A stretch of DNA of 64,000 bases from Naegleria gruberi. Lineage: Eukaryota. Location: assembly GCA_000004985.1 (NCBI GenBank), contig GG738921.1, one strand, 5' to 3'. Of this stretch, positions 9,200 to 64,000 are shown piece after piece. The position numbers and the translations under genes were made by a program. The notes below the pieces were generated by a model that worked only from the letters and a program-made list of their open reading frames with translations, did no database searches and was not told where the DNA came from. Each line of letters begins with the position of its first letter. Within the stretch, counting starts at the first letter, position 1.

Positions 9200-10162
9200 T
9201 CATCTTTGCATTTCAGTACTGTGTGAAATACAAGTATAGCCAGTGAGTATCATTATTTTAATTGGATCGATAGTTCTATTCCATTCCAATAAGATACTCT
9301 CCTGAAAAACTTTAGTTTCATTTAGTCTCTTTAGGGCGCTTGTTTTAACAATGGATGCATTTTGTAATCGATGTAAAATGATTAGATTTTCAATGGATTT
9401 CTGTGCATTTTCAATGGAAATCTCAATTTCACCTCTTTTTAAATCAATCTTGTTGATTACGAAAACTATCGAAAAAGAGTTTCGTTTTTTAAAACGAATT
9501 ATATCACAAAGAATCTTGTTTAAACTTTGGACTGAATCCTTTTGATCCAAGCTACAAACAAGCACGAAACACGACTGTTCCGTACACATTTTCCTAACTT
9601 CTTCTTCTCTTTTTTCCTTTTCGTCTTGCACTTCATAATAATCTTTTTCCATTATTAGAATGTTAAAATTACATTCAAATTATATTTTCGTACCTAGTTC
9701 TTTAACTCTAATAGTCAATTCTACACCATCAATCTCTAATTTTATCCTCCTTGAAGACAATATCTTCCTATTAGGCGATCTATCAAATAATCCATCAGCA
9801 ACTCGCCTCACAATACACCTCTTTCCAACATTGTCAATTCCCAAAAGAAGAGCAAACATTTCCTTTTCTGGTTTGGATTTCATCCTTAATTTTCTCTTCA
9901 TGCACGAAATTAAAACTTTTCTTCGCATTGAAACCTTTGGATTGGAAAGAATTTTGTAAATTGCTTCAAACTCATGATGGTGTTGTCTGAAATAGAGTGT
10001 ATCCTTCATTTCCTTTTTCTGTTTCAAATTCTGTACATCTTTCCAGGTTTCCATGTCCAATTCCTTGTCCACATCACATTCATATCTAAACAATTTAAAT
10101 TTCATCATGAAATAATTCCACCAAAACTCATCAAAATAATCATCAAGATCCTGCATATGCAT
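9200..10162 (-). CDS. Atypical Ras-superfamily small GTPase-like protein with ~100-aa N-terminal extension; exons approx 9694..10162 and 9200..9642, intron approx 9643..9693 (51 nt)
   Basis: P-loop LLLGIDNVGKRCIV (G1) lies in the upstream ORF. The NKxD motif FVINKIDL (G4) and TSALK (G5, SAK-like) lie in the downstream ORF. Both ORFs share one frame, separated only by a stop that sits inside a GTACG..AAAAAG 51-nt intron. The switch II DxxGQ is absent or degenerate (YEVQDEKEK). Confidence 0.5.
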
Positions 10163-10477
10163 TGCATATTAAACATATCCCAATGATACCCAAGAATATC
10201 CAAATCATCATCTTGATCATTCCTAATAAACTTCATTATCAAGAGAAGAATTTCTGGAGGTAAGGAAGTAAAAAGTTCTCGTTTCATTTTTTTTTAGAAA
10301 AGTTCATCGGGTTTGAGGCATTTAAAAAAAATGAGGTACAAACTTTGATTTATATATAGCTCAATATAAATTATTAAAATTCAAAAATTGAGAATATTGT
10401 ATAATGGTATGCCTAGGTTACAATTTGAAACAATGAGTGACTCAATTGTTATGATGATTAAAAATTAATGTTATGAC

Positions 10478-10864
10478 TGCGTCGACCGGGAATTGAAATT
10501 CCTTTTTAGGAATATTATATTTAATATTTAAATAGTTTACAATATTGAATAATGAACAACGTGTAAATGTGTTGAAGTAGGGTACCCGTGAGTCGATTCA
10601 CCATATTTGGAAAGGTACCATTCAAGAACAACAACAATAAATGTATTTAATATTAATTATTTGATACCGGGAGTCGCTTTTCCTTTTTGGGAATGTTGTA
10701 TGTGTGTTATAAACTGGTCGACGCATTTAAAATTTTTTAATTTTTTTAAAAAAATGAAATTGGGTAACGGGAGACGGTTTACTATATATGGAACATTCAA
10801 ACATACAATTGAACCCGGGTCACGGCGATGGCAACGCCGTATTCTACCACTAAACCATCGACGC
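10478..10864 (-). tRNA. tRNA-Gly(GCC) gene interrupted in the T-loop: 5' part (nt 1-58, acceptor through T-loop) at 10864..10807, 3' part (T-loop, T-stem 3', acceptor 3', discriminator; 20 nt) at 10497..10478
   Basis: The minus strand reads GCGTCGA TG GTTT AGTGGTA GAAT A CGGCG TTGCCAT CGCCG TGAC CCGGG TTCAATT. The remote piece reads TTCAATT CCCGG TCGACGC A. Joining them gives a perfect cloverleaf with anticodon GCC and a D-arm nearly identical to metazoan tRNA-Gly-GCC. The 7-nt TTCAATT is present at both junctions. Confidence 0.6.
10498..10806. repeat. 309-bp insert inside the tRNA-Gly T-loop, flanked by 7-bp direct repeat AATTGAA (+ strand 10491-10497 and 10807-10813); contains 3-4 degenerate ~85-100-bp tandem units
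   Basis: Units start near 10483, 10582, 10666 and 10767. They share the motif ACCGGGA..TCG..TTT.C.TTTTTGGAAT. The first unit is the tRNA 3'-end/insert junction itself. There is also a GGTACC..GGTACC hairpin. ORFs 10607..10954 and 10657..10893 overlap here and are treated as spurious. Confidence 0.5.
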
Positions 10865-11090
10865 TTCACGTTCATTTGGAATGAAATGAACATCTCAAGA
10901 ACAATAATTGCTTATATTTTAATACTGGATTTTTGTGAAACAATTAATCCATGAATGTGCAAAGTTTAACCGACCAATGCTACTTTGTGCCTCGAATGTA
11001 CTTCCAAATTCAAATGGTCCTGCCTCAAAAGATGCTTCCAAATTAAGCAACGGGACACAGTAGTAACTTTTGATTACGTAACAAAACAAA

Positions 11091-16088: not shown

Positions 16089-16160
16089 GCCGCTATAGCT
16101 CAGAGGAAGAGCTTCGATCTCCTAAGTCGAAGGTCGCCGGTTCGAGCCCGGCTAGTGGTA
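16089..16160 (+). tRNA. tRNA-Arg(CCU)
   Basis: GCCGCTA TA GCTC AGAGGAA GAGC T TCGAT CTCCTAA GTCGA AGGTC GCCGG TTCGAGC CCGGC TAGTGGT A. Cloverleaf with anticodon CCT flanked by T33 and A37, and a canonical GGTTCGAGCC T-arm. The acceptor stem has two G-U pairs. Confidence 0.75.
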
Positions 16161-18040: not shown

Positions 18041-18828
18041 NNNNNNNNNNNNNNNNNNNNNNNNNNNNNNNNNNNNNNNNNNNNNNNNNNNNNNNNNNNN
18101 NNNNNNNNNNNNNNNNNNNNNNNNNNNNNNNNNNNNNNNNNNNNNNNNNNNNNNNNNNNNNNNNNNNNNNNNNNNNNNNNNNNNNNNNNNNNNNNNNNNN
18201 NNNNNNNNNNNNNNNNNNNNNNNNNNNNNNNNNNNNNNNNNNNNNNNNNNNNNNNNNNNNNNNNNNNNNNNNNNNNNNNNNNNNNNNNNNNNNNNNNNNN
18301 NNNNNNNNNNNNNNNNNNNNNNNNNNNNNNNNNNNNNNNNNNNNNNNNNNNNNNNNNNNNNNNNNNNNNNNNNNNNNNNNNNNNNNNNNNNNNNNNNNNN
18401 NNNNNNNNNNNNNNNNNNNNNNNNNNNNNNNNNNNNNNNNNNNNNNNNNNNNNNNNNNNNNNNNNNNNNNNNNNNNNNNNNNNNNNNNNNNNNNNNNNNN
18501 NNNNNNNNNNNNNNNNNNNNNNNNNNNNNNNNNNNNNNNNNNNNNNNNNNNNNNNNNNNNNNNNNNNNNNNNNNNNNNNNNNNNNNNNNNNNNNNNNNNN
18601 NNNNNNNNNNNNNNNNNNNNNNNNNNNNNNNNNNNNNNNNNNNNNNNNNNNNNNNNNNNNNNNNNNNNNNNNNNNNNNNNNNNNNNNNNNNNNNNNNNNN
18701 NNNNNNNNNNNNNNNNNNNNNNNNNNNNNNNNNNNNNNNNNNNNNNNNNNNNNNNNNNNNNNNNNNNNNNNNNNNNNNNNNNNNNNNNNNNNNNNNNNNN
18801 NNNNNNNNNNNNNNNNNNNNNNNNNNNN

Positions 18829-28706: not shown

Positions 28707-28779
28707 GCCGACATAGCTCAGTTGGGAGAGCGTAAGACTGAAGATCTTAAGGTCCCTGGTTCGATCCCTGGTGTCGGCA
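28707..28779 (+). tRNA. tRNA-Phe(GAA)
   Basis: GCCGACA TA GCTC AGTTGGGA GAGC G TAAGA CTGAAGA TCTTA AGGTC CCTGG TTCGATC CCTGG TGTCGGC A. Canonical Phe D-arm, anticodon GAA, perfect acceptor and anticodon stems. One T:T mismatch in the middle of the T-stem. Confidence 0.75.
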
Positions 28780-33212: not shown

Positions 33213-34830
33213 CAATATTACAATTCCATTAGAAACATGTGTTTATTCTACCACGTAAAAACTTCCTTATGGAGATGGAATCTAATTCCATTTCTTTCAT
33301 TTGCATCCCAAATGGCATTCGAAACTGAAGTTACCAATTGTTCTGGACCACAAACTAAAACACCAACATATGCATTCAATTCTCCTCTTTCTTTCATTTC
33401 CTTTTTCACTTGTTCCAAGAATTGTTTTGGATTGGCTCTTCCTTTATGAATAAATGCTGTTTGTTGTGAATTTTCTTCTTTCATTTTGGAAATGAAAATA
33501 TTTGGTTTTAAATTCTTATTTCCATTCGTTTCCAAGAGTTGAGGAAATACTTGAATCATATCAGTGGTTGGAATTGACCAACAAGTATAAACAGTCTTAT
33601 CTTGAATATTCTTTTCCAACAAGTGTGAATAAATTGAATGAACTGGTGTAATACCAATTCCACCACCAAACATGACAATTGTCTTGTATCTCAATAATGG
33701 AACTGATAATGATCCATAAGCACCTTCAACTCTACAAATTAATTCATTGGCTGATTGAGCCTTCTCTTGAGCAATTTTTGCAACTTGTTTTGACCATCCA
33801 CTTCCAAAATTCTTTACATGAACTGTAAATTCTAATTCCTTCTTTTTAATCATTCCACCATCAATTTCCTTACAACTACTAACTGTGATTGGATGGTGTT
33901 GATATTTTGAAACAGCAGGAATGTATAAGAATATGAAATGTCCCATTGAAGGATTACTGCCAAATGTCAAGAATGGTTTTCTCATTGTAATGGTTGTAAC
34001 TTGACTCTTTTCATCATATTTGATTGAATCAATTTTGGTTGGAATACCAAATCCAAATACCACTCTCAAAAATACATCAAACAGATATAATAAAATTGAT
34101 AATGCCATATAAGGTAATAAATTAATATATCCAGAACCATGAATAATTGATAAAATGACAATTAAAATGGACAAGATGACATGTGAAATTAAAAAGACCT
34201 CCCATAGCTTTCTTCTTATGACTGGGAATGTCATTAACCAAAGAATAGTCATGAAAAACCATGCAATAATTCCCAAAATTGGAAATGTTGGAGATGTCAC
34301 ATCAACTAAATATAATCCAGATGCATTATAATGAACAACCATTGCAATTCCATGAGCAGTTACAAAAAACCATTGTAAAATACCCAACCATCTGTGATAT
34401 TTAATTGCTCTATCAAATGAAATTCCAAATAAAACTTGTAAAACTGAATATCTCGTGACTGGAAATAAAATTAATCCAAAATTGAAAACACAAACAGAAG
34501 CAAATGCTTTTCCAGCTTCAGCTGATGTTGCATTCACATATCCAAATGCAAACCAAATGGCCACAAGAATCCAATAACATGAAATTACAACAGCTTCACC
34601 CAAAGTTAAATCTAAAATGGTATTAATGTAAATTCCAATAAATTTCAAATTGACTTGTTTGGTCAATCTTCTGTACAAGATCAAATCAAGGAATAGATTT
34701 GGATTCACTCTTGGTCCAATCACACTCAATAAGAATCCACCAATAACCAACAATCCACAAATGAATGCAGTAGCAATCAAATGCCATCTGTAGGAATTGG
34801 CAAGTTTGGTCAATGAGTTCATTGAGATAC
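33213..34830. repeat. Inverted-repeat arm A (~1.6 kb) of a near-identical inverted duplication; partner arm at ~43900..45499
   Basis: 3' ~520 codons of FRE copies A and B differ at only 4 residues (I/V, I/V, I/V, E/D). Identity extends ~35 bp past the stop codons, where antisense ORFs 33180..33449 and 45272..45484 share the identical string MCLFYHVKTSLWRWNLIPFLSF... Identity breaks at ..GSISMNSLTK/NSYRWHLIATAF. Confidence 0.8.
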
Positions 34831-36136
34831 TTCCATCCTTAATGTTGCCAGTAGAAGAACCACATGTGGCCAATTCACTGCCAGGAGGAGCTGCCAAGTG
34901 TGCCAAAGTAGCTGTTTGTAAAAAGTTAATCATGACATTTTTGCCTCTGTAATTGTGGACATATTCCATGGATGTAGATGTTTTGGCTATAGCCCAAGAA
35001 ATTGAAATTTGTGCATTTGTAAATAAGTGATCCAATGAATCCTTAGTATTGACCAAACGTGTCCATTTCAAATGAAGTTCATAATTTCCACTCACAGATC
35101 TTAATCCTCCATTTTTGGAAATGAAATCTTGAGATGAATCTAATGTTGGTGCTTGAAGATTACCTTGCATGTATGTGTCTAATATAACTGGGTTTCCACT
35201 TGAATCCACATATCCAAACATTGTATCAGCAGTGTCCATTCCAGAGTTGGTTCCATGATTAAATCCAATTGATGCATAGCCATAAATTCCTGTGGCAATC
35301 AATCCAAATTCAATAATTGGTACATTTGCATCATTTGGATTTGTTAAAACTTTCCAATACAATTTCAAAGAATCAGAAGTTCCATAATTAGCAACTAACT
35401 TGTAATTAGCTGTAGGATAATCAGCAGAGTTGACCCACTGAGTTAAAATACTTTGTGAATATCCAGTTTGAAGTGAACAGGTCGAATTACTACTACTAGA
35501 ACCTCCATCCGAAACTACTGGTTGACTTGGCAATACTCCATACTCACCAGTAGCATAACCAGCTGAAAGGAAATTCAAACTTGGACCTTTGCCAGTGCTG
35601 GTATGTCTAACCATTCCAGTACTGGTGGAGTGGAGTGCCCAGGAAGTTTTCATGACTGCATTGGTGAAAATGACATCGTGGGAATCTCCTGTTTTAACGA
35701 AACGTGTCCACTTGATATGTGTCTCACCTGTGGCCGAGTTGTATCCACCATTTCTTTGAAGGATATCATCGGAAGCATCACTCACTGGTGATTGTGGCTT
35801 TGCAACCATCCATGCATCCATGATGGTTACACTTTGAGAAGCACTATTATAATACCCGAAAACTTTATCAATTCATCATCATTAATAATATTAAGTTAAT
35901 ATTGCCAATAACAACTTACTGGTATCACCCTTCATTGGATCTCCATTTAAATAACCAAAGCAAAACGAGACGTAACCTCTCGTGTTTTTGGCCACAGCTC
36001 CAAATTCCAAGATTGCATCATTAATATCAGAGCTTTTTTCATTCCTTAATAATTTCCAATATAGCTTGAGATTGGAACTGAATGTGGCCACATTTCCCGA
36101 TGGATAATCAGTGGAAGATACAAACTGAGTATTCAT
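33248..36136 (-). CDS. DOMON-domain ferric reductase / NADPH-oxidase-like flavocytochrome, copy A; exon 2 33248..35862, intron 35863..35919 (57 nt), exon 1 35920..~36136 with unresolved 5' end (no signal peptide found)
   Basis: Extracellular repeats (NYKLVANYGTSDSLKLYWKVLTNPNDAN..), about 6 TM helices with conserved His (HRWLG..AHG), FAD site HPITVSS, NAD site MFGGGIGITP and CGPEQL. Exon 1 homolog ..VYSQSMNTQFVSSTDYPSGNVATFSSNLKLYWKLL..GDPMKGDT. Upstream in-frame sequence is hydrophilic (..HHHHYKILDTYNNYNTTRRIKGSERK). Confidence 0.7.
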
Positions 36137-40830: not shown

Positions 40831-41177
40831 TCCCCTTTATAATTAGATCCAAAATATTTTACATCATGATCAATTTGTTGATGATTTAATTATTTAATTA
40901 GATCATTTATAATATTTAAATATTCATATGATGATGATGATGATTGATGAGATGGAATAATAAATTTTGATCAATTCCAAGATCATTATATTAATATATT
41001 AATAATATTAAAATTACACACAAATGATCAAAGANNNNNNNNNNNNNNNNNNNNNNNNNNNNNNNNNNNNNNNNNNNNNNNNNNCCATCATCTCCATTTT
41101 CATTCTTTTCATCCTCCAATCCATCACCAAACTCCTTTTTATAAAATAAAAGGAATAATTTAAATTATAATAATTGT

Positions 41178-42484: not shown

Positions 42485-45473
42485 ATGGCGTTTTATGTTA
42501 TTCGAAACTCGCAGCTCTTTCTTCTGTCTGCACTCTTGTTGGTAACAGTTTTAGCATGTCATGACCCAGCACATGCAGCAAACGTTACCTATAGCCAAAG
42601 TATTGAAACTCAATTCGTAAATCCCTCTGATTATCCAGCAACAAACGTTGCCTCTTTCGGTTCGAATCTGAAACTTTATTGGAAACTCTTAAAAAACGAA
42701 AAGAGTTCAGATATTAATAATGCCATTCTAGAATTTGGTGCTGTTGCTCTTCGTACTAAAGGTTACCTTTCCTTTTGTTTTGGTTATTTAAGTGGAGATC
42801 CAATGAAGGGAGATACCAGTAAGTTATTTTTTTATTCGAAAGTTCTAAAGCATTAATATTCAATCTAAAGTCTTTGGTTTCTTCAATCAAGCTTCAGGTA
42901 GCATCACTGTTATGGACGCTTGGATGACTAACAAACCTGCACCACCAACCAGTGATCCCTCTGATGATATCATCCAGAAGAATGGAGGGTTTCGAACAGT
43001 TAATGGAATATCCGAAACTCACATGAAATGGACACGTTTCGTCAAGACCAACGATACTAGAGATGTTGTATTTACTAACACTGCCATGAGAATGTCCTGG
43101 GCTATTCACTCAACTAGTACTTCAATGGTGGAACATACCAGTCAAGGAAGTGGCACAACTGTTAACTTTCTTTCGGCTGGATTCGTAACTGGTGAATATG
43201 GAAAGCTTCCACAACCACCAGTGATTGCAACAGGAGGTGGAAATAACTGTTCACTTCCAACTGGATATTCACAAAGTATTTTAACTCAGTGGGTCAATTC
43301 TGCTGATTATCCTGCAGCTAATTACAAGTTAGTTGCTAATTATGGAACATCTGATTCTTTGAAATTGTATTGGAAAGTTTTGACCAATCCAAATGATGCC
43401 AATAATCCAATTATTGAATTTGGATTGTTGGCTACAGGTATTTATGGTTATGCTTCACTTGGTTTCAATCATGGAGCTAGTTCAGGAATGCAAACTGCTG
43501 ATACCATGTTTGGTTATGTAGATTCAACTGGTAAGGCAGTGATTATTGATGCTTACATGCAAGGAAATTTGCAAGCACCAGCTCCAGACACCACTCAAAA
43601 TTTTATTTCAAGCAATGGTGGTTTGAGATCTGTCAATGGCAATTATGAACTCCATTTGAAATGGACACGTTTGGTAAATACTAAGGACGCTATGGATTAT
43701 ACATTCAGCAATGCACAAATTCCAATTTCATGGGCTCTTTCCAAAACTTCTACTTCCATTACTTCTGTTCACAGTTACAGAGACAAGAATGTCATGATTA
43801 ATTTCATGCAAAATGGAGCTTCCACTGAAATGGCAGCTCCTCCTGGCAGTAGTTTGGCATGTGGATCAAGTAGTGGTTCACAAACTGGAACTGTTGTCAT
43901 TGATGAAGGTTTGAAATTAGCAAATTCCTACAGATGGCATTTGATTGCTACTGCATTCATTTGTGGATTGTTGGTCATTGGTGGATTCTTATTGAGTGTG
44001 ATTGGACCAAGAGTGAATCCAAATCTATTCCTTGATTTGATCTTGTACAGAAGATTGACAAAACAAGTCAATTTGAAATTTATTGGAATTTACATTAATA
44101 CCATTTTAGATTTAACATTGGGTGAAGCTGTTGTAATTTCATGTTATTGGATTCTTGTGGCCATTTGGTTTGCATTTGGATATGTGAATGCAACATCAGC
44201 AGAAGCTGGAAAAGCATTTGCCTCTGTTTGTGTTTTCAATTTTGGATTAATTTTATTTCCAGTCACAAGATATTCAGTTTTACAAGTTTTATTTGGAATT
44301 TCATTTGATAGAGCAATTAAATATCACAGATGGTTGGGTATTTTACAATGGTTTTTTGTAACTGCTCATGGAATTGCAATGGTTGTTCATTATAATGCAT
44401 CTGGATTATATTTAGTTGATGTGACATCTCCAACATTTCCAATTTTGGGAATTATTGCATGGTTTTTCATGACTATACTTTGGTTAATGACATTCCCAGT
44501 CATAAGAAGAAAGTTGTGGGAAGTCTTTTTAATTTCACATGTCATCTTATCCATTTTAATTGTCATTTTATCAATTATTCATGGTTCTGGATATATTAAT
44601 TTATTACCTTATATGGCATTATCAATTTTATTATATCTATTTGATGTATTTTTGAGAGTGGTATTTGGATTTGGTGTTCCAACCAAAATTGATTCAATCA
44701 AATATGATGAAAAGAGTCAAGTTACAACCATTACAATGAGAAAACCATTCCTAACATTTGGTAGTAATCCTTCAATGGGACATTTCATATTCTTATATAT
44801 TCCTGCTGTTTCAAAATATCAACACCATCCAATCACAGTTAGTAGTTGTAAGGAAATTGATGGTGGAATGATTAAAAAGAAGGAATTGGAATTTACAGTT
44901 CATGTCAAGAATTTTGGAAGTGGATGGTCAAAACAAGTTGCAAAAGTTGCTCAAGAGAAGGCTCAATCAGCCAATGAATTAATTTGTAGAGTTGAAGGTG
45001 CTTATGGATCATTATCAGTTCCATTATTGAGATACAAGACAATTGTCATGTTTGGTGGTGGAATTGGTATTACACCAGTTCATTCAATTTATTCACACTT
45101 GTTGGAAAAGAATGTTCAAGATAAGACTGTTTATACTTGTTGGTCAATTCCAACCACTGATATGATTCAAGTATTTCCTCAACTTTTGGAAACGAATGGA
45201 AATAAGAATTTGAAACCAAATATTTTCATTTCCAAAATGAAGGATGAGAATTCACAACAAACAGCATTCATTCATAAAGGAAGAGCCAATCCAAAACAAT
45301 TCTTGGAACAAGTGAAAAAGGAAATGAAAGAAAGAGGAGAATTGAATGCATATGTTGGTGTTTTAGTTTGTGGTCCAGAACAATTGGTAACTTCAGTTTC
45401 GAATGCCATTTGGGATGCAAATGAAAGAAATGGAATTAGATTCCATCTCCATAAGGAAGTTTTTACGTGGTAG
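42485..45473 (+). CDS. DOMON-domain ferric reductase / NADPH-oxidase-like flavocytochrome, copy B (intact, with signal peptide); exon 1 42485..42818, intron 42819..42897 (79 nt), exon 2 42898..45473
   Basis: Signal peptide MAFYVIRNSQLFLLSALLLVTVLACHDPAHA. Duplicated extracellular DOMON-like modules. TM region with His pairs, HPITVSS (FAD), GGGIGITP and CGPEQL (NAD). The GTAAGT..TTCAG junction is phase-1 consistent, giving ..GDTS|SITVMDAWM... Confidence 0.85.
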
Positions 45474-50593: not shown

Positions 50594-50867
50594 NNNNNNN
50601 NNNNNNNNNNNNNNNNNNNNNNNNNNNNNNNNNNNNNNNNNNNNNNNNNNNNNNNNNNNNNNNNNNNNNNNNNNNNNNNNNNNNNNNNNNNNNNNNNNNN
50701 NNNNNNNNNNNNNNNNNNNNNNNNNNNNNNNNNNNNNNNNNNNNNNNNNNNNNNNNNNNNNNNNNNNNNNNNNNNNNNNNNNNNNNNNNNNNNNNNNNNN
50801 NNNNNNNNNNNNNNNNNNNNNNNNNNNNNNNNNNNNNNNNNNNNNNNNNNNNNNNNNNNNNNNNNNN

Positions 50868-51119: not shown

Positions 51120-54100
51120 ATGTCAACAACATTCGACCAAGTCTTCCATGCAGTTTCGGAAGGAAACATTGAATTTTTGAGACACATTGATTTACGTCCA
51201 TTTATTAATCATGAACAAGATGATCCCGACGATGAAGGTATTGTTACATTATTATGTACAGCGTGCGGCAGAGGACATTTGAAAATTGTAGAATTATTAT
51301 TGAATGTTGATGGAGTTGATGTAAACAAATGTGTATGTTTTCATAGATTAATTATTTGATGTTGAATGTAAATCTTTGAAATTTATATATGAAAATAGGG
51401 ACCGTTGTTTTTTGCTTGCCAAAACGGATACGTAGAAATTGTAAAATTATTGTTGAGTGTTGATGGAATTGATGTTAATCAAATTGTATGTAATAATGGA
51501 ATGAATAATGGAATGGTATATTTATATTAATGATTTTTATGATTATCTATAATAGAGAGTGTTACGTGAAGCATGTGAAAAAGGCTATTTTGAAATTGTA
51601 AAATTATTATTGGACTTTGATGGAATTAATGTTGACGCTTATGTATGTAGCAAATATTAATATTAAGAAGTTTAATATTAATTCTTCTTATTAGAAAGCA
51701 TTGCATGGAGCATGTTATGGAGGGAATTTTAATATTGTAAAATTATTACTTGCCAAGAATGCTCGAATAGGAAAAGAAGAAAGAAAAGAATATGATAAAA
51801 AAATCAAACCGAAAGTAAGTTTAGTTTTCAGATAAGTGTCAAATATAGTCCAATATTAGTTCAATCTCGAATATACTTTGGATGAATTAAAGGATAAAAT
51901 CTCACAATTACGAATTCAACATTGGAGAAATGTGANNNNNNNNNNNNNNNNNNNNNNNNNNNNNNNNNNNNNNNNNNNNNNNNNNNNNNNNNNNNNNNNN
52001 NNNNNNNNNNNNNNNNNNNNNNNNNNNNNNNNNNNNNNNNNNNNNNNNNNNNNNNNNNNNNNNNNNNNNNNNNNNNNNNNNNNNNNNNNNNNNNNNNNNN
52101 NNNNNNNNNNNNNNNNNNNNNNNNNNNNNNNNNNNNNNNNNNNNNNNNNNNNNNNNNNNNNNNNNNNNNNNNNNNNNNNNNNNNNNNNNNNNNNNNNNNN
52201 NNNNNNNNNNNNNNNNNNNNNNNNNNNNNNNNNATAATGATAAGAGAGAGTTGATAAATGAAATTGAAAGAGTTGAAAATAGTTTGAGAGAACATGAAGT
52301 TAATTTTGAATGTTTCCAAAATGTTAACAAATTGAAATTGAAAAAGAAAGATTTGTTCAAGTCACTAGCTGAAATCAAAGACAAAATAGAAGATATTGAA
52401 TATGCTAAAGACACACTTATATTCGAAATTAAAACTCAAAAAAGAAACAAGATTGGTAAAGTTGAGGAAATTGAAAGATTGGAGAAGAAACTTTCTGACA
52501 TGATTCAGGAATTATCAAACATGCACGAAAGAAAATCAGAAATCCAAAACGACTTGATGGAGCTGATTCCTAAATTTCCTGAAATTATTATTGAAATGGA
52601 ACAACCATTAGCAATAGATGGTGTTGTCATTTCATCATCAATGACACCAAAAGAAAAATTCAGAGTATTTGCACTTCAAAACTCTATTTTACTTTTAAAT
52701 ACTCAATTTTCAAATTATACTAACATTCAAACACTTCACACTGGATTATCAGTTGTTTACAAAGCAAGCAAATCTAATAGTCAGGTGGTTATTCTCAAAG
52801 AAATTTCTCTTTCAGAAAATAATTGTGAAACAGTAATGAATGAAATTATGAATTTGGTTATACTCAAAGGTCATCCTAGAATTATCAAATTGAATGGTGT
52901 ATTTATTGAATCACAATTTAATAAGGTTTATATTGAAACACCATATTATTCAAATGGAAATTTACTGGAGTATATCAACAAGATTAGAAATCATCATGAT
53001 TTACCAACTTTGAAGAACATGTTGAGAAGTTTATTTAGAAAAATGACAGAAACACTTCAATTTATCCATTCCAAAGATATTCTGCACAGAGATTTAAAAC
53101 CTCAAAATATTTTGGTGAATGAAAATGGAGAACCAATTATTGCAGATTTTGGATCAAGTAAGAAACTAATTGCTCAATTGACAAATAATACAATGGGAGT
53201 TGGAACATTGAAATATATGGCACCAGAAGTGAAAAGACAAGAAGAATCACCAAGTGAAAAATCAGACATTTGGTCATTGGGTGTTTCATTGTATGAATGT
53301 TGGCAATTGATTCAACAAATAAGTATGATGAATAATGCAACAGTTGAAATATTGAACTTTGACTCGAAGGGTAAGGTAGTTTTACCTACCAGTACTTTGA
53401 ATGATGAAATTGATATAACATTGATGAAAATGTTGAGTCACATGTTCAATAGCAATCCAGAAGACAGACCAAGTTCATTAACACTACTGACAGATTCAGA
53501 TTATTTCACAAATGAAAATCCTACAACAGATATACTTTCTAAATCTAATCAAAAAGAATTGGAAGGTTCTGAAAAGATATCACTTTGGCAAGCAAGATTA
53601 AAGAAGATGAAACAATTTTTGCCTGAAAGCACAGAAGGAGAAATCAAGGTTGACATCTATAGACACCGTCTATTGGAAGATATTGCCTCTATATATAAGG
53701 ATTTGATACCAATAGGGTATTCAGTGATATTTTACAAAACATTTGTGAAATATAAGGGAGAGACTGGAATAGACGCAGGAGGATTATCCAATGAGATGTA
53801 TTCTAAATATATTGAAGCCATACTGGAAAGCAAACATTTTCAAAATAGCGAAAGCTCACCAAATGAAAATTTCATTTTAACTGATGAACCACTCACAGAT
53901 GAATCTAAAAATCAATTGAGAACACTTGGGTTGTTATTGAAAAAGTTATTAATTGACTGTGACGACAAGACAGTTTATCTTCCATTGAATAGCTTTATAT
54001 TTTATTATTTATTGAATGGAAATGCTCTCAACAAAGAAACACTCCAATTTAATGCTATATCCCTTTTACTATCAAAATTCTTGAGAGAATATGATTTTGA

Positions 54101-57949: not shown

Positions 57950-60900
57950 NNNNNNNNNNNNNNNNNNNNNNNNNNNNNNNNNNNNNNNNNNNNNNNNNNN
58001 NNNNNNNNNNNNNNNNNNNNNNNNNNNNNNNNNNNNNNNNNNNNNNNNNNNNNNNNNNNNNNNNNNNNNNNNNNNNNNNNNNNNNNNNNNNNNNNNNNNN
58101 NNNNNNNNNNNNNNNNNNNNNNNNNNNNNNNNNNNNNNNNNNNNNNNNNNNNNNNNNNNNNNNNNNNNNNNNNNNNNNNNNNNNNNNNNNNNNNNNNNNN
58201 NNNNNNNNNNNNNNNNNNNNNNNNNNNNNNNNNNNNNNNNNNNNNNNNNNNNNNNNNNNNNNNNNNNNNNNNNNNNNNNNNNNNNNNNNNNNNNNNNNNN
58301 NNNNNNNNNNNNNNNNNNNNNNNNNNNNNNNNNNNNNNNNNNNNNNNNNNNNNNNNNNNNNNNNNNNNNNNNNNNNNNNNNNNNNNNNNNNNNNNNNNNN
58401 NNNNNNNNNNNNNNNNNNNNNNNNNNNNNNNNNNNNNNNNNNNNNNNNNNNNNNNNNNNNNNNNNNNNNNNNNNNNNNNNNNNNNNNNNNNNNNNNNNNN
58501 NNNNNNNNNNNNNNNNNNNNNNNNNNNNNNNNNNNNNNNNNNNNNNNNNNNNNNNNNNNNNNNNNNNNNNNNNNNNNNNNNNNNNNNNNNNNNNNNNNNN
58601 NNNNNNNNNNNNNNNNNNNNNNNNNNNNNNNNNNNNNNNNNNNNNNNNNNNNNNNNNNNNNNNNNNNNNNNNNNNNNNNNNNNNNNNNNNNNNNNNNNNN
58701 NNNNNNNNNNNNNNNNNNNNNNNNNNNNNNNNNNNNNNNNNNNNNNNNNNNNNNNNNNNNNNNNNNNNNNNNNNNNNNNNNNNNNNNNNNNNNNNNNNNN
58801 NNNNNNNNNNNNNNNNNNNNNNNNNNNNNNNNNNNNNNNNNNNNNNNNNNNNNNNNNNNNNNNNNNNNNNNNNNNNNNNNNNNNNNNNNNNNNNNNNNNN
58901 NNNNNNNNNNNNNNNNNNNNNNNNNNNNNNNNNNNNNNNNNNNNNNNNNNNNNNNNNNNNNNNNNNNNNNNNNNNNNNNNNNNNNNNNNNNNNNNNNNNN
59001 NNNNNNNNNNNNNNNNNNNNNNNNNNNNNNNNNNNNNNNNNNNNNNNNNNNNNNNNNNNNNNNNNNNNNNNNNNNNNNNNNNNNNNNNNNNNNNNNNNNN
59101 NNNNNNNNNNNNNNNNNNNNNNNNNNNNNNNNNNNNNNNNNNNNNNNNNNNNNNNNNNNNNNNNNNNNNNNNNNNNNNNNNNNNNNNNNNNNNNNNNNNN
59201 NNNNNNNNNNNNNNNNNNNNNNNNNNNNNNNNNNNNNNNNNNNNNNNNNNNNNNNNNNNNNNNNNNNNNNNNNNNNNNNNNNNNNNNNNNNNNNNNNNNN
59301 NNNNNNNNNNNNNNNNNNNNNNNNNNNNNNNNNNNNNNNNNNNNNNNNNNNNNNNNNNNNNNNNNNNNNNNNNNNNNNNNNNNNNNNNNNNNNNNNNNNN
59401 NNNNNNNNNNNNNNNNNNNNNNNNNNNNNNNNNNNNNNNNNNNNNNNNNNNNNNNNNNNNNNNNNNNNNNNNNNNNNNNNNNNNNNNNNNNNNNNNNNNN
59501 NNNNNNNNNNNNNNNNNNNNNNNNNNNNNNNNNNNNNNNNNNNNNNNNNNNNNNNNNNNNNNNNNNNNNNNNNNNNNNNNNNNNNNNNNNNNNNNNNNNN
59601 NNNNNNNNNNNNNNNNNNNNNNNNNNNNNNNNNNNNNNNNNNNNNNNNNNNNNNNNNNNNNNNNNNNNNNNNNNNNNNNNNNNNNNNNNNNNNNNNNNNN
59701 NNNNNNNNNNNNNNNNNNNNNNNNNNNNNNNNNNNNNNNNNNNNNNNNNNNNNNNNNNNNNNNNNNNNNNNNNNNNNNNNNNNNNNNNNNNNNNNNNNNN
59801 NNNNNNNNNNNNNNNNNNNNNNNNNNNNNNNNNNNNNNNNNNNNNNNNNNNNNNNNNNNNNNNNNNNNNNNNNNNNNNNNNNNNNNNNNNNNNNNNNNNN
59901 NNNNNNNNNNNNNNNNNNNNNNNNNNNNNNNNNNNNNNNNNNNNNNNNNNNNNNNNNNNNNNNNNNNNNNNNNNNNNNNNNNNNNNNNNNNNNNNNNNNN
60001 NNNNNNNNNNNNNNNNNNNNNNNNNNNNNNNNNNNNNNNNNNNNNNNNNNNNNNNNNNNNNNNNNNNNNNNNNNNNNNNNNNNNNNNNNNNNNNNNNNNN
60101 NNNNNNNNNNNNNNNNNNNNNNNNNNNNNNNNNNNNNNNNNNNNNNNNNNNNNNNNNNNNNNNNNNNNNNNNNNNNNNNNNNNNNNNNNNNNNNNNNNNN
60201 NNNNNNNNNNNNNNNNNNNNNNNNNNNNNNNNNNNNNNNNNNNNNNNNNNNNNNNNNNNNNNNNNNNNNNNNNNNNNNNNNNNNNNNNNNNNNNNNNNNN
60301 NNNNNNNNNNNNNNNNNNNNNNNNNNNNNNNNNNNNNNNNNNNNNNNNNNNNNNNNNNNNNNNNNNNNNNNNNNNNNNNNNNNNNNNNNNNNNNNNNNNN
60401 NNNNNNNNNNNNNNNNNNNNNNNNNNNNNNNNNNNNNNNNNNNNNNNNNNNNNNNNNNNNNNNNNNNNNNNNNNNNNNNNNNNNNNNNNNNNNNNNNNNN
60501 NNNNNNNNNNNNNNNNNNNNNNNNNNNNNNNNNNNNNNNNNNNNNNNNNNNNNNNNNNNNNNNNNNNNNNNNNNNNNNNNNNNNNNNNNNNNNNNNNNNN
60601 NNNNNNNNNNNNNNNNNNNNNNNNNNNNNNNNNNNNNNNNNNNNNNNNNNNNNNNNNNNNNNNNNNNNNNNNNNNNNNNNNNNNNNNNNNNNNNNNNNNN
60701 NNNNNNNNNNNNNNNNNNNNNNNNNNNNNNNNNNNNNNNNNNNNNNNNNNNNNNNNNNNNNNNNNNNNNNNNNNNNNNNNNNNNNNNNNNNNNNNNNNNN
60801 NNNNNNNNNNNNNNNNNNNNNNNNNNNNNNNNNNNNNNNNNNNNNNNNNNNNNNNNNNNNNNNNNNNNNNNNNNNNNNNNNNNNNNNNNNNNNNNNNNNN

Positions 60901-62754
60901 NNNNNNNNNNNNNNNNNNNNNNNNNNNNNNNNNNNNNNNNNNNNNNNNNNNNNNNNNNNNNNNNNNNNNNNNNNNNNNNNNNNNNNNNNNNNNNNNNNNN
61001 NNNNNNNNNNNNNNNNNNNNNNNNNNNNNNNNNNNNNNNNNNNNNNNNNNNNNNNNNNNNNNNNNNNNNNNNNNNNNNNNNNNNNNNNNNNNNNNNNNNN
61101 NNNNNNNNNNNNNNNNNNNNNNNNNNNNNNNNNNNNNNNNNNNNNNNNNNNNNNNNNNNNNNNNNNNNNNNNNNNNNNNNNNNNNNNNNNNNNNNNNNNN
61201 NNNNNNNNNNNNNNNNNNNNNNNNNNNNNNNNNNNNNNNNNNNNNNNNNNNNNNNNNNNNNNNNNNNNNNNNNNNNNNNNNNNNNNNNNNNNNNNNNNNN
61301 NNNNNNNNNNNNNNNNNNNNNNNNNNNNNNNNNNNNNNNNNNNNNNNNNNNNNNNNNNNNNNNNNNNNNNNNNNNNNNNNNNNNNNNNNNNNNNNNNNNN
61401 NNNNNNNNNNNNNNNNNNNNNNNNNNNNNNNNNNNNNNNNNNNNNNNNNNNNNNNNNNNNNNNNNNNNNNNNNNNNNNNNNNNNNNNNNNNNNNNNNNNN
61501 NNNNNNNNNNNNNNNNNNNNNNNNNNNNNNNNNNNNNNNNNNNNNNNNNNNNNNNNNNNNNNNNNNNNNNNNNNNNNNNNNNNNNNNNNNNNNNNNNNNN
61601 NNNNNNNNNNNNNNNNNNNNNNNNNNNNNNNNNNNNNNNNNNNNNNNNNNNNNNNNNNNNNNNNNNNNNNNNNNNNNNNNNNNNNNNNNNNNNNNNNNNN
61701 NNNNNNNNNNNNNNNNNNNNNNNNNNNNNNNNNNNNNNNNNNNNNNNNNNNNNNNNNNNNNNNNNNNNNNNNNNNNNNNNNNNNNNNNNNNNNNNNNNNN
61801 NNNNNNNNNNNNNNNNNNNNNNNNNNNNNNNNNNNNNNNNNNNNNNNNNNNNNNNNNNNNNNNNNNNNNNNNNNNNNNNNNNNNNNNNNNNNNNNNNNNN
61901 NNNNNNNNNNNNNNNNNNNNNNNNNNNNNNNNNNNNNNNNNNNNNNNNNNNNNNNNNNNNNNNNNNNNNNNNNNNNNNNNNNNNNNNNNNNNNNNNNNNN
62001 NNNNNNNNNNNNNNNNNNNNNNNNNNNNNNNNNNNNNNNNNNNNNNNNNNNNNNNNNNNNNNNNNNNNNNNNNNNNNNNNNNNNNAAAAATAAATGAGAT
62101 GGAGTATATTCTATATGTTGAAATATGACAATTTGACAGATTGTTATTATTATCATATTGAATTCGATTCTAAAACACTAAAAATGATACCAGTTGTATA
62201 TCAGTGTGACTAAACGTACATGGTAAAGTTACACGATAATAGGATGTACTTTCATTGAGATAGAGTGTACACTTGGATATAATCACTCTTGACATTGAAC
62301 ATTTACTGATTGACTGAATGTAAGTTTCATGAATTGTTTCAAAACGTATATAGATGTATATAAATGATGTATATAATGTGTGTTATCAATTCTAGACTAA
62401 TTTCATATAAAATAAGTGAGTTGGAGCATAATCTTTGATTTTATGTCAAAGTTCTATAGTAAAATGATAGAGTTGACAACTCAATATCTACTGAACCAAT
62501 ATTCATGAAATTGATATCATATGCTAATTAGAGTGTCTACATATCATGGTATTAATTTCAGTGAAAATAGAGTTGTTTCTGGTCCCTTCAGATTTCCATC
62601 CATTCTCCTGACAAATCACCATGTACTATCCACTGGATGTATTTCTTGAAATGAAATTATATAATTTGATGAAAGTACACTTTATTTGAGATGTAGAACT
62701 CGATATTATCATTTATTTTGAGATTAGTAACTTTTCCTAAAGTGTCATCCTTAG

Positions 62755-62943
62755 TTGGGTTTGGGTTTGGGTTTGGGTTTGGGTTTGGGTTTGGGTTTGG
62801 GTTTGGGTTTGGGTTTGGGTTTGGGTTTGGGTTTGGGTTTGGGTTTGGGTTTGGGTTTGGGTTTGGGTTTGGGTTTGGGTTTGGGTTTGGGTTTGGGTTT
62901 GGGTTTGGGTTTGGGTTTGGGTTTGGGTTTGGGTTTGGGTTGA
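62755..62943 (+). repeat. (GGGTTT)n / (TTTGGG)n telomere-type hexamer tract (~31 units), internal, followed by 50-nt N-gap
   Basis: Perfect tandem GTTTGG repeats begin at ..CCTTAGTTGGG|TTTGGG. Unique AT-rich sequence lies 5' of it. G-rich strand is on +, running 5' to 3' toward the window end. Confidence 0.85.
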
Positions 62944-62993
62944 NNNNNNNNNNNNNNNNNNNNNNNNNNNNNNNNNNNNNNNNNNNNNNNNNN

Positions 62994-63636
62994 GATTTTA
63001 CAGATCTAATAAAATTGCAGATACATTTTGTAATAACTGCTTAACATGAACTTCTGCAAAATTACAACAAGTCTATTGAACCAACAAGTTGCTGAAACAA
63101 GCATTCAATAAGGCGGACATTTCCTATTGTCCTCGATGAATTATTGATTCTTGAATATATTACTAATGAAAGAATGCGTGCGCAGCATATTTTTCATTCT
63201 CAAGTAACCAAGTAGAAGTTTGTTTTAAAAAATTTAACAACTCCAAAAAAAATTAAATCACTTCTCGCCCACAACAAACTTGCAGCAGCACATCATTTCT
63301 TTAGAAGAATGACAAGTACTGGCACCTCCTCCAGTAATGGTAGAACCATGAAGATTTTGGTAGAGAGGGTTATTATGAATGATAATTCAACAACATCATC
63401 TTTGAATACAACAATACCTGATCATTGGGATGTTCCGAAAAATTCATCATCTTTGGCATCTTCAACATCTTCACCTACTACAGTAGTAATACCTCCAGAA
63501 AAGTTTAAAGATCCTTGGATTGGAGTGAATCATGATAAATCAGTACTCGATGGAATGTCAATGATGAAGGATTTCTTATTTAATTCACCATCAATTCCGA
63601 GTGATAAAGAACTTCCTCAATTGAAACCGAATTGGG
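62994..63636 (+). repeat. Subtelomeric duplicate (~640 bp, ~96% identical) of 49225..49838 = NAPE-PLD promoter, 5' UTR and first ~107 codons, truncated and capped by telomere repeats
   Basis: Collinear with 49225-49838. Small differences are 26-bp and 9-bp in-frame insertions and a few substitutions (e.g. GATGAAGAA to GATAAAGAA). The identity ends at CCGAATTGGG, where the original continues ATAAATTAATG and the copy continues TTTGGGTTTGGG. Confidence 0.85.
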
Positions 63637-64000
63637 TTTGGGTTTGGGTTTGGGTTTGGGTTTGGGTTTGGGTTTGGGTTTGGGTTTGGGTTTGGGTTTG
63701 GGTTTGGGTTTGGGTTTGGGTTTGGGTTTGGGTTTGGGTTTGGGTTTGGGTTTGGGTTTGGGTTTGGGTTTGGGTTTGGGTTTGGGTTTGGGTTTGGGTT
63801 TGGGTTTGGGTTTGGGTTTGGGTTTGGGTTTGGGTTTGGGTTTGGGTTTGGGTTTGGGTTTGGGTTTGGGTTTGGGTTTGGGTTTGGGTTTGGGTTTGGG
63901 TTTGGGTTTGGGTTTGGGTTTGGGTTTGGGTTTGGGTTTGGGTTTGGGTTTGGGTTTGGGTTTGGGTTTGGGTTTGGGTTTGGGTTTGGGTTTGGGTTTG
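63634..64000 (+). repeat. Terminal (GGGTTT)n telomere-type repeat tract running to the end of the window (at least 60 units)
   Basis: Uninterrupted GGGTTT hexamers from 63634 to 64000. G-rich strand is oriented 5' to 3' toward the right end, as expected for a right-arm chromosome terminus. Confidence 0.85.

Follow-up and report, generated by a model that had tools for sequence, protein, structure and literature searches.

A tRNA-Gly(GCC) gene of Naegleria gruberi is interrupted in its T-loop by 309 bp of AT-rich, non-coding and internally repetitive DNA, and the locus is probably a dead copy of this multicopy gene, inactivated by the insert. The window belongs to N. gruberi, as an 857-aa ORF is 100% identical to a protein of this species. 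Since N. gruberi is reported to have about 924 tDNAs (PMC2888827), one copy would be dispensable. The whole 64-kb stretch of DNA analysed here is referred to as the window, and within it the locus and its immediate flanks comprise the following features.

10870..10891, minus strand: native 5' flank, perfect 8-bp inverted repeat GTTCATTT-CATTCC-AAATGAAC, with its end 5 nt upstream of tRNA nt 1 (read from sequence alone)
10864..10807, minus strand: tRNA-Gly(GCC) 5' piece, 58 nt, GCGTCGATGGTTTAGTGGTAGAATACGGCGTTGCCATCGCCGTGACCCGGGTTCAATT; linear nt 1-58, standard positions 1-60; 5' acceptor strand, D arm (A box), anticodon arm, variable loop, 5' strand of the T-stem and T-loop TTCAATT
10832-10830, minus strand: anticodon GCC of the 5' piece
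10807..10813, minus strand: 7-bp direct repeat TTCAATT, upstream copy, identical with the T-loop
10806..10498, minus strand: insert, 309 bp, 29% GC, non-coding, without A or B boxes, terminal inverted repeats (TIRs) or tail
10491-10497, minus strand: downstream copy of TTCAATT, in the 3' piece
10497..10478, minus strand: tRNA-Gly(GCC) 3' piece, 20 nt, TTCAATTCCCGGTCGACGCA; second TTCAATT, 3' strand of the T-stem (CCCGG), 3' acceptor strand (TCGACGC) and discriminator A
10460..10464, minus strand: native T5 terminator; its first T lies 14 nt past the tRNA 3' end, with 13 nt in between

The two tRNA pieces and their predicted transcript

A first-pass annotation had described both pieces and a 309-bp T-loop interruption flanked by a perfect duplication of TTCAATT, one copy on each side, and we confirm these coordinates and sequences within an interrupted locus of 387 bp (10864..10478). 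It had also raised the question of whether the pieces fold as tRNA-Gly when joined. They do, but the correct product is a 71-mer rather than the spliced 78-mer named there, because one TTCAATT has to be taken out together with the insert. This excision in silico is clean: the product is recognized by ARAGORN as tRNA-Gly(gcc), and each of the 12 acceptor and T-stem pairs formed across the insert is a Watson-Crick pair. Moreover, the joined 71-mer is identical at 71 of 71 positions to an intact tRNA-Gly(GCC) gene, followed by a T5 terminator, on the environmental metagenome contig L001 from the Naegleria lineage (the 5' piece matches L001 207-264 and the 3' piece L001 258-277). Thus, the two pieces are not chance fragments of a tRNA gene. 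Neither carries a single substitution, and the native 3' terminator is still present at the split locus.

In its interrupted state the locus escapes ARAGORN, whether or not introns are allowed, and the mitochondrial mode finds nothing either. It has no Rfam match at gathering score, and the 5' piece alone reaches a partial match of 18.8 bits to the Rfam tRNA family (RF00005) against a threshold of 29. The only tRNAs that ARAGORN and Rfam detect in the window are tRNA-Arg(CCT) and tRNA-Phe(GAA). A relaxed ARAGORN run (80% threshold) proposed a "tRNA-Ser(tga)" that covers the 5' piece and runs into the insert, but its stems are mismatched and the call is gone at thresholds of at least 85%. Searches of viral and prokaryotic genome collections with the tRNA core returned nothing, exact-protein look-ups with N. 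gruberi genes or with ORFs across the locus yielded no further copy, and the right-hand neighbour gene has no homologue found outside N. gruberi. A literature search likewise retrieved no account of atypical nuclear tRNA genes for Naegleria. The N. fowleri and N. lovaniensis loci reached via the BTB gene of L001 contain no tRNA genes and are not orthologous to the split locus.

Two thymidine runs in the insert bear on what could be transcribed from the locus.

10748..10754, minus strand: T7 run on the tRNA strand, at nt 111-117 of the precursor and 53 nt inside the insert; predicted RNA polymerase III (Pol III) terminator
10729-10732, minus strand: T4 run, after the T7 run

Such runs on the coding strand are expected to stop Pol III, and the reading of the T7 run as a stop is supported by four intact tRNA genes of the Naegleria lineage, which end at T4-T6 within 3-12 nt. 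The most probable course of events is that the insert DNA entered the T-loop at a break and left the 7-bp duplication behind. Pol III may still initiate at the 5' piece, since it has an intact A box and retains 9 of the 11 positions of the B box. Transcription would halt at the T7 run, yielding a dead-end RNA of ~115 nt, and the 3' piece would never be transcribed together with the 5' piece. Glycine decoding would then be left to intact paralogues, the intact gene being known here from L001, that is, from a related organism and not from N. gruberi itself. The stability of the would-be truncated transcript is not unusual (z = -1.3). In the free fold of the 387-nt precursor the two pieces do not meet, and an enforced cloverleaf costs about 6 kcal/mol.

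The absence of any substitution in either piece suggests an insertion that is recent on the time scale of sequence decay. Like typical tRNA pseudogenes of tDNA-rich genomes (PMC2888827), such a locus would be non-functional and tRNA-related, and its insert has degenerate tRNA-like fragments. In contrast to typical pseudogenes, which are truncated or mutated, the two parts of the split tRNA-Gly gene remain perfect and have only been separated.

The insert and its possible sources

The insert begins with GTATGTTTG... and ends with ...AAAAAGGAAT, and no gene lies within its 309 bp. As the first-pass annotation had recognized, it is built of degenerate tandem units that re-use the junction motif: there are about four, each ~81-100 bp long, and the last crosses the junction with the tRNA 3' piece. 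The motif by which they are recognized and two further segments of interest are listed here.

10767..10793, minus strand: sub-repeat motif U1, TTCCATATATAGTAAACCGTCTCCCGT
10667..10693, minus strand: sub-repeat motif U2, TTCCCAAAAAGGAAAAGCGACTCCCGG
10586..10612, minus strand: sub-repeat motif U3, TTCCAAATATGGTGAATCGACTCACGG
10486..10512, minus strand: sub-repeat motif U4, TTCCTAAAAAGGAATTTCAATTCCCGG, spanning the junction of insert and tRNA 3' piece
10716..10725, minus strand: internal TGCGTCGACC, perfect complement of the tRNA 3' end GGTCGACGCA, including a copy of the 5' acceptor strand, GCGTCGA
10594..10667, minus strand: segment resembling the 5' flank of the same gene at 10941-10862, with about 68% identity (55/81)

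When the 27-nt motif was searched as TTCC-N6-GG-N5-CGNCTCNCGG with up to 3 mismatches, it occurred four times in the 64 kb, always within the split locus and at spacings of 100, 81 and 100. This compares with 0.21 occurrences expected, and none of 100 shuffles reached four, in a test that is partly circular because the pattern was drawn from the same four copies. The sub-repeats are 63-78% alike and near-random between the motif blocks, and by their appearance they look old. A fifth unit in the 5' flank was not recovered by the unit profile. The units are not degenerate copies of whole tRNAs, as alignment of the tRNA with the insert gives p = 0.36 in direct and 0.20 in inverted orientation and the insert has no sub-threshold Rfam tRNA match; nor do they form an array of extra TFIIIC or B-box sites, as none of them matches a B box within 2 mismatches.

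What the first-pass annotation had missed is that parts of the insert are similar to the tRNA gene's own neighbourhood, which argues against a simple foreign element. We tentatively prefer the reading in which repeat DNA related to tRNAs, and old by then, was moved or copied into the gene, possibly from a decayed paralogous tRNA locus or from the gene's own neighbourhood. It is preferred over a classical transposon because the sub-repeats, the acceptor-stem copy and the 5'-flank-like segment all resemble the gene and its flanks. These resemblances differ in weight. In the predicted fold the internal TGCGTCGACC is base-paired with the 3' piece, and a shared word of at least 10 nt is found in 45 of 2000 shuffles (p about 0.02) and in 2 of 174 control tiles. 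The likeness of 10594-10667 to the 5' flank is suggestive: its shuffle p of about 0.006-0.012 comes from one of six tests and lies within the range of self-comparison shuffles. After multiple-test correction the flank similarities are marginal, and similarity of the insert to the 3' flank or the tRNA body is not significant.

One may argue that the insert was instead built locally without any mobile element, by template switching or unequal exchange that copied the 5' flank, the 3' end and the junction into the T-loop, with later tandem duplication giving the 2 x ~181-bp (4 x ~90-bp) structure. This is a further version of the dead-gene reading, and a tentative one that we consider somewhat unlikely. 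It would account for a 181-bp higher-order duplication (10793-10666 versus 10612-10485, 84/131 identical), whose score of 62 is above that of all 60 dinucleotide shuffles (mean 32, maximum 52), and for the register of the last unit with the tRNA 3' piece, since the alignment of U2 with U4 extends through CCCGGT of that piece. The match to the acceptor stem (p about 0.02) and the likeness to the 5' flank (p about 0.01) point the same way, as do internal duplications in other AT-rich spacers of the window. However, copies that are only 64-78% identical next to perfect tRNA pieces would call for very rapid turnover of the spacer, for selection or for gene conversion, the flank likeness is as marginal as described above, with nothing significant for the 3' flank and tRNA body, and a clean 7-bp duplication is not specifically predicted by such a process.

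The coexistence of old-looking sub-repeats with two undecayed tRNA pieces is an oddity of this locus. Had the repeats arisen after the insertion, 71 neutral nucleotides should have decayed in the meantime, and their perfection may reflect selection or gene conversion.

A more specific version of the dead-gene reading, and a rather improbable one, is that the insert is a non-autonomous, tRNA-gene-specific mobile element, either Dada-like or of a new family, that integrated into the T-loop/B-box region with a 7-bp target-site duplication (TSD). The two undecayed pieces are as expected for a recent insertion and the excision in silico is clean, but the perfect 7-bp duplication is the only point that favours this reading. 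The two 45-nt ends of the insert share no inverted word of at least 6 nt, and no word of at least 5 nt is common to the ends and the target at matching distance. The best 12-nt terminal match is only 8/12, and the inverted repeats that were found are not terminal, which does not fit a MITE or other TIR element; the earlier remark that TIRs are not obvious thus extends to terminal and sub-terminal inverted repeats alike. No A box or B box was found in the insert on either strand with up to 2 mismatches, and no A-rich or simple-repeat tail, which speaks against a tRNA-derived SINE. A second copy was found neither by blastn in the 64-kb window nor, with the unit profile, in 107 kb that comprise the window and three other Naegleria-lineage loci. 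Hence, the suggestion of the first-pass annotation that a SINE-like element had targeted the B box is left with nothing beyond the TSD. In addition, parts resembling the tRNA gene and its flank are unexpected in foreign DNA, unless the element mimics its target. An integrase-type element, which duplicates a tRNA 3' end as its att site, does not fit either, with no intact tRNA at either junction and no gene in the 309 bp.

The closest comparison is with Dada DNA transposons, which target tRNA and snRNA genes, including tRNA-Gly genes in a protist, with 6-8-bp TSDs and no terminal inverted repeats, and have disrupted tRNA genes in zebrafish and Perkinsus marinus (PMC3706591). The split locus resembles such sites in that a multicopy small-RNA gene, here for tRNA, carries an insertion with a short TSD (7 bp, within the range of 6-8 bp) and without terminal inverted repeats, and in that the host tolerates the loss through high gene redundancy. 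The target differs, however. For the Perkinsus tRNA-Ile/Tyr families the target is TAGCTC, a stretch of the A box, and in zebrafish the TSD of the tRNA-Leu family is GCGTTCA; the T-loop TTCAATT is not among the Dada target sites compared here (PMC3706591). Furthermore, Dada families are recognized by autonomous copies with a Dada DDE transposase and by several copies at one site of a gene family, and in the DNA covered here neither a transposase nor a second copy ties the insert to any family.

Intron, split-gene and artefact readings

It is very improbable that the gene is functional, whether the 309 bp are a long non-canonical T-loop intron, the other possibility offered by the first-pass annotation, or the pieces are split halves joined by tRNA splicing endonuclease and ligase. 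In favour of function, both pieces are perfect, with 12/12 bridging pairs, despite the old-looking insert, and the native 3' terminator is kept. T-loop introns do exist in Cyanidioschyzon merolae and in archaea (PMC3728597, PMC6379350), and at these BHB-type introns, as at the split locus, the T-loop is interrupted and removal restores the exact mature sequence. In contrast, the split locus has no BHB, its insert measures 309 nt versus 22 nt for one C. merolae T-loop intron (PMC3728597), and a Pol III terminator is predicted inside it. The 7-nt flanking duplication is the signature of a DNA insertion and not an intron feature. A mature tRNA spliced from the locus would have the same sequence as the product of intact paralogues.

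The BHB motif was defined, following the same sources, as two 3-nt bulges around a 4-bp helix, or as the relaxed hBH or HBh' forms, with flanking helices of more than 2 bp (PMC3728597, PMC6379350). In all 8 registers that regenerate the tRNA (8/8), no BHB, hBH or HBh' motif was found. The best register, 59/60, is the only one with the T-stem as outer helix (5/5 pairs), and its central helix TTCA/TTCA has 2/4 pairs and its inner helix 3/5 with a mismatch; the others are no better. A mirror look-alike, T-stem / TTC / AATT:AATT / TTC, has its bulges on the wrong strands and only 2 pairs in the third helix, and it arises of necessity whenever a 7-mer with the palindrome AATT in it is duplicated. 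In the canonical 37/38 BHB geometry the 3'-splice-site bulge abuts the exon-exon helix, and the handedness test applied to the look-alike was inferred from this arrangement.

Other kinds of intron fare no better. Group I introns are marked by a terminal omega-G, a 5' exon ending in U and a conserved P3-P9 core. At the split locus no register ends in G, no Intron_gpI match appears at E up to 10, and the insert has 29% GC. None of the 8 registers offers the GT..AG of a spliceosomal intron, and the insert has no match to any Rfam intron family. Moreover, the T7 and T4 runs on the coding strand are predicted to prevent transcription of a precursor through the insert, the T7 run terminating Pol III after ~115 nt.

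The split tRNA genes known from Nanoarchaeum equitans and its relatives likewise have their 5' and 3' parts apart in the genome. Halves of this type have their own promoters and a GC-rich complementary leader and trailer that form a BHB. In contrast, the tRNA-Gly pieces lie 309 bp apart on one strand, overlap by 7 nt and have no complementary leader or trailer for trans-joining, the sequences adjoining the two pieces pairing at no more than 3/5 positions; the 3' piece is also without promoter elements. If the two pieces are kept intact because the locus is still used, they would be joined without a BHB or uninterrupted Pol III transcription, which we regard as equally improbable. It would call for read-through or Pol II transcription together with an unknown endonuclease and ligase, or for two separately made pieces. 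The sole positive hint in this direction is the perfection of 71 nt and 12 bridging pairs next to junction-spanning sub-repeats that look old.

Least credible of all is a mis-assembly of the insert or of its repeat number: the sequence comes from a draft scaffold, the window containing seven longer N runs and one isolated N, and the region is internally repetitive, but the nearest N lies more than 7 kb from the locus, repeats that are 64-78% alike are too diverged for collapse or mis-join, and the junctions are clean and symmetrical with their 7-bp duplication.

Implications for Naegleria tRNA genes

If the dead-copy reading is true, the split tRNA-Gly(GCC) locus is merely one further inactivated copy among roughly 900 tRNA genes. 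If copies of the insert sit in the T-loops of other tRNA genes, Heterolobosea would have their first described tRNA-targeting element, and a split architecture that proves to be conserved or expressed would add a eukaryotic supergroup to those with BHB-independent processing of disrupted tRNA genes. In practice, disrupted loci such as this one escape tRNA finders, and the insert, as a short repeat-bearing sequence, should be checked as a possible repeat family when Naegleria genomes are annotated.

The interrupted tRNA-Gly(GCC) gene

Two tRNA genes are called in the window by both ARAGORN and Rfam at its gathering threshold, and the split tRNA-Gly locus as it stands is called by neither; in a permissive Rfam search its 5' piece scores 18.8 bits, short of the threshold of 29.

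tRNA genes and gene pieces in the window
10864-10807, minus strand: tRNA-Gly(GCC) 5' piece, GCGTCGATGGTTTAGTGGTAGAATACGGCGTTGCCATCGCCGTGACCCGGGTTCAATT
10497-10478, minus strand: tRNA-Gly(GCC) 3' piece, 309 bp past the 5' piece, TTCAATTCCCGGTCGACGCA
16089-16160: tRNA-Arg-CCT (ARAGORN, Rfam gathering threshold)
28707-28779: tRNA-Phe-GAA (ARAGORN, Rfam gathering threshold)

When the two pieces are joined with one TTCAATT removed, the resulting 71-mer is called tRNA-Gly(gcc) by ARAGORN, and all pairs that bridge the insert are Watson-Crick (7/7 in the acceptor stem and 5/5 in the T-stem). This joining, a check proposed in the first-pass annotation, bears out its claim of a tRNA-Gly(GCC) gene split in the T-loop by 309 bp, with a target-site-like 7-bp duplication, TTCAATT, on both sides of the insert. 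The "78-mer" named there counts TTCAATT twice, and the true spliced product is the 71-mer.

An intact counterpart comes from a single scan of a metagenome collection with the D-arm/anticodon-arm core as query, which yielded the 1,473-bp contig L001 (Ga0247722_10058881). It carries a tRNA-Ile(AAT) gene and an intact tRNA-Gly(GCC) gene, the latter lying 87 nt further downstream and followed by a T5 run. Since N. fowleri and N. lovaniensis provide the only named relatives (43% identity) of the BTB-domain gene adjoining these tRNAs, the contig derives from an unsequenced environmental member of the Naegleria lineage. Its tRNA-Gly(GCC) gene is identical to the joined window sequence at 71/71 positions; thus, TTCAATT is the native T-loop of tRNA-Gly(GCC), and neither window piece has acquired a substitution. 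Scans of viral and prokaryotic collections gave no match, and a literature search found no description of unusual nuclear tRNA genes in Naegleria.

Close to the locus, a perfect 8-bp inverted repeat, GTTCATTT-CATTCC-AAATGAAC (10870-10891, minus strand), ends 5 nt upstream of tRNA nt 1. The gene just downstream seems to be multi-exon (10105-10287, 9680-10162 and 9200-9652, all minus strand); its N-terminus looks F-box-like by eye (LPPEILLLIMKF), and its C-terminal part is that of a Ras-family GTPase. The start codon is predicted ~190 bp away from the 3' end of the tRNA, which places the insert upstream of this gene. No homologue of the gene neighbouring the split tRNA was found outside N. gruberi.

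Genomic setting

The window has 31% GC and dense long ORFs with eukaryotic domains, and one ORF (33248-35821, minus strand) matches a Naegleria gruberi protein with 100% identity along 857 aa. This ORF and its paralogue, whose next-best matches are in N. fowleri and N. lovaniensis, form a pair of DOMON/ferric-reductase (NOX-like) genes on opposite strands ~7 kb apart; they are 87% identical, and the N. fowleri and N. lovaniensis orthologues are 67% identical to the query copy at 42912-45473 (plus strand). The window is a draft scaffold with several N runs (1333-1382, 18041-18828, 41035-41084, 50594-50867, 51936-52233, 57950-62085 and 62944-62993), and it is reading through these that produces the very long, artefactual "ORFs" over 18-19 kb and 58-62 kb. 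Two perfect (TTTGGG)n arrays (62755-62941 and 63632-64000; TRF unit TTGGGT, 31 and 61.5 copies) have their G-rich strand running 5' to 3' towards the window end, and beyond the first lie a 50-N gap and ~640 bp of unique sequence. Both arrays resemble telomeric repeats at joined scaffold ends.

About 924 tDNAs have been reported for N. gruberi (PMC2888827), which makes each individual tRNA gene copy highly redundant. One 21-kb locus each from N. fowleri and N. lovaniensis (42 kb in all) was fetched via the BTB gene of L001; the two are collinear with each other but are no orthologues of the split locus. They hold no tRNA genes, whereas the 64 kb of N. gruberi hold two intact genes and the split one, a contrast that fits the large reported tDNA number.

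Structure of the insert

The insert is non-coding, with 29% GC, and blastn found no second copy in the 64-kb window. The tandem degenerate sub-repeats described in the first-pass annotation are indeed present, as four units (U1-U4) spaced by 100, 81 and 100 bp.

27-nt cores of the four sub-repeats
10793-10767, minus strand: U1, TTCCATATATAGTAAACCGTCTCCCGT
10693-10667, minus strand: U2, TTCCCAAAAAGGAAAAGCGACTCCCGG
10612-10586, minus strand: U3, TTCCAAATATGGTGAATCGACTCACGG
10512-10486, minus strand: U4, TTCCTAAAAAGGAATTTCAATTCCCGG

U4 spans the junction between the insert and the 3' piece, and its final 12 nt are the tRNA T-loop and T-stem. Within the 64 kb the degenerate unit pattern is restricted to this locus (expected 0.21; four occurrences in 0/100 shuffles), in a test that is partly circular because the pattern was taken from U1-U4 themselves. 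U1 pairs with U3 and U2 with U4, giving a 181-bp higher-order duplication: 10793-10666 and 10612-10485 are identical at 84/131 positions (score 62; 60 dinucleotide shuffles, mean 32, maximum 52), the likeness being concentrated in motif blocks and near-random between them. Internal duplications also occur in other AT-rich spacers of the window. With a four-unit profile, nothing further came up across the window and another 43 kb of Naegleria-lineage DNA (next-best E = 0.9).

The insert also resembles parts of the gene and its surroundings. Segment 10667-10594 shares 68% identity with 10941-10862 in the 5' flank, with p ~0.006-0.012 in a two-sequence shuffle that was one of six tests, and a score that did not exceed self-comparison shuffles. 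In addition, the tRNA 3' end has an exact complement inside the insert, TGCGTCGACC (10725-10716), with which it pairs in the predicted fold; a shared word as long arose in 45/2000 shuffles and 2/174 control tiles. Likeness of the insert to the 3' flank or to the whole tRNA body was not significant.

Intron or disrupted gene copy

The first-pass annotation had offered a T-loop intron as an alternative, a reading that did not hold up. [quoted passage not shown] In the canonical 37/38 anticodon intron, from which the handedness of the motif was taken, the 3'-splice-site bulge abuts the exon-exon helix, the 5' exon gives one strand of the central helix, and position 32 pairs with intron position -3. 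The motif, as defined in PMC3728597 and PMC6379350, has two 3-nt bulges, a 4-bp helix between them and flanking helices of >2 pairs. No BHB was found in the eight registers: the T-stem serves as outer helix only in 59/60, where the central helix TTCA/TTCA forms 2/4 pairs, and no register is better. A BHB-like drawing (T-stem / TTC / AATT:AATT / TTC) arises automatically because the duplicated 7-mer contains the palindrome AATT; it was rejected for having its bulges on the wrong strands and a third helix of two pairs. No register ends in G, which excludes a group I intron, and none has GT..AG boundaries; Rfam intron families gave no match at E up to 10.

RNA polymerase III terminates at oligo-T, and intact genes of the Naegleria lineage (n=4) are followed by a T4-T6 run within 3-12 nt. 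The tRNA strand of the insert holds a T7 run (10754-10748) and a T4 run (10732-10729), and from the former a Pol III transcript is predicted to end ~115 nt from its start, far short of the 3' piece. In the unconstrained predicted fold of the 387-nt precursor the two pieces stay apart, and forcing the cloverleaf is predicted to cost ~6 kcal/mol.

The locus is therefore most probably a non-functional, disrupted gene copy and not a gene with an intron. Insertion of 309 bp into the T-loop would have inactivated this copy. With an intact A box and 9/11 B-box positions, it may still attract Pol III and yield a truncated RNA, whose predicted stability is not unusual (z = -1.3). Intact paralogues would presumably supply tRNA-Gly. 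As to origin, we tentatively favour tRNA-related repeat DNA, already old when it was moved or copied in. Such a source would explain how undecayed tRNA pieces can adjoin diverged sub-repeats with a likeness to the tRNA T-arm, acceptor stem and 5' flank. That the same disruption arose from an insert built purely locally is a tentative second possibility.

Disruption by a target-specific mobile element is unlikely. A clean 7-bp duplication such as this one is expected from a staggered-cut insertion, and the nearest known parallel lies in the Dada superfamily of DNA transposons. These insert in tRNA and snRNA genes, with 6-8-bp duplications and no terminal inverted repeats, and are present in the protist Perkinsus, tRNA-Gly genes included (PMC3706591). 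The Dada signature described there is absent from the insert, which also has no A or B boxes, no tail and no terminal inverted repeats (best 12-nt terminal match 8/12), and no other copy was found in the window or the 43 kb; membership in a known family is thus not indicated. Of the SINE-like element once suggested, only the target-site-like duplication stands.

The sub-repeats look old and one crosses the junction, yet the 71 nt and 12 bridging pairs are perfect. Each of three processes could account for this contrast: old DNA arriving recently, gene conversion by paralogues, and selection keeping the split pieces intact. Selection, for which that very perfection speaks, is highly improbable given the internal terminator run and the missing BHB, and only selection would make the locus remarkable.
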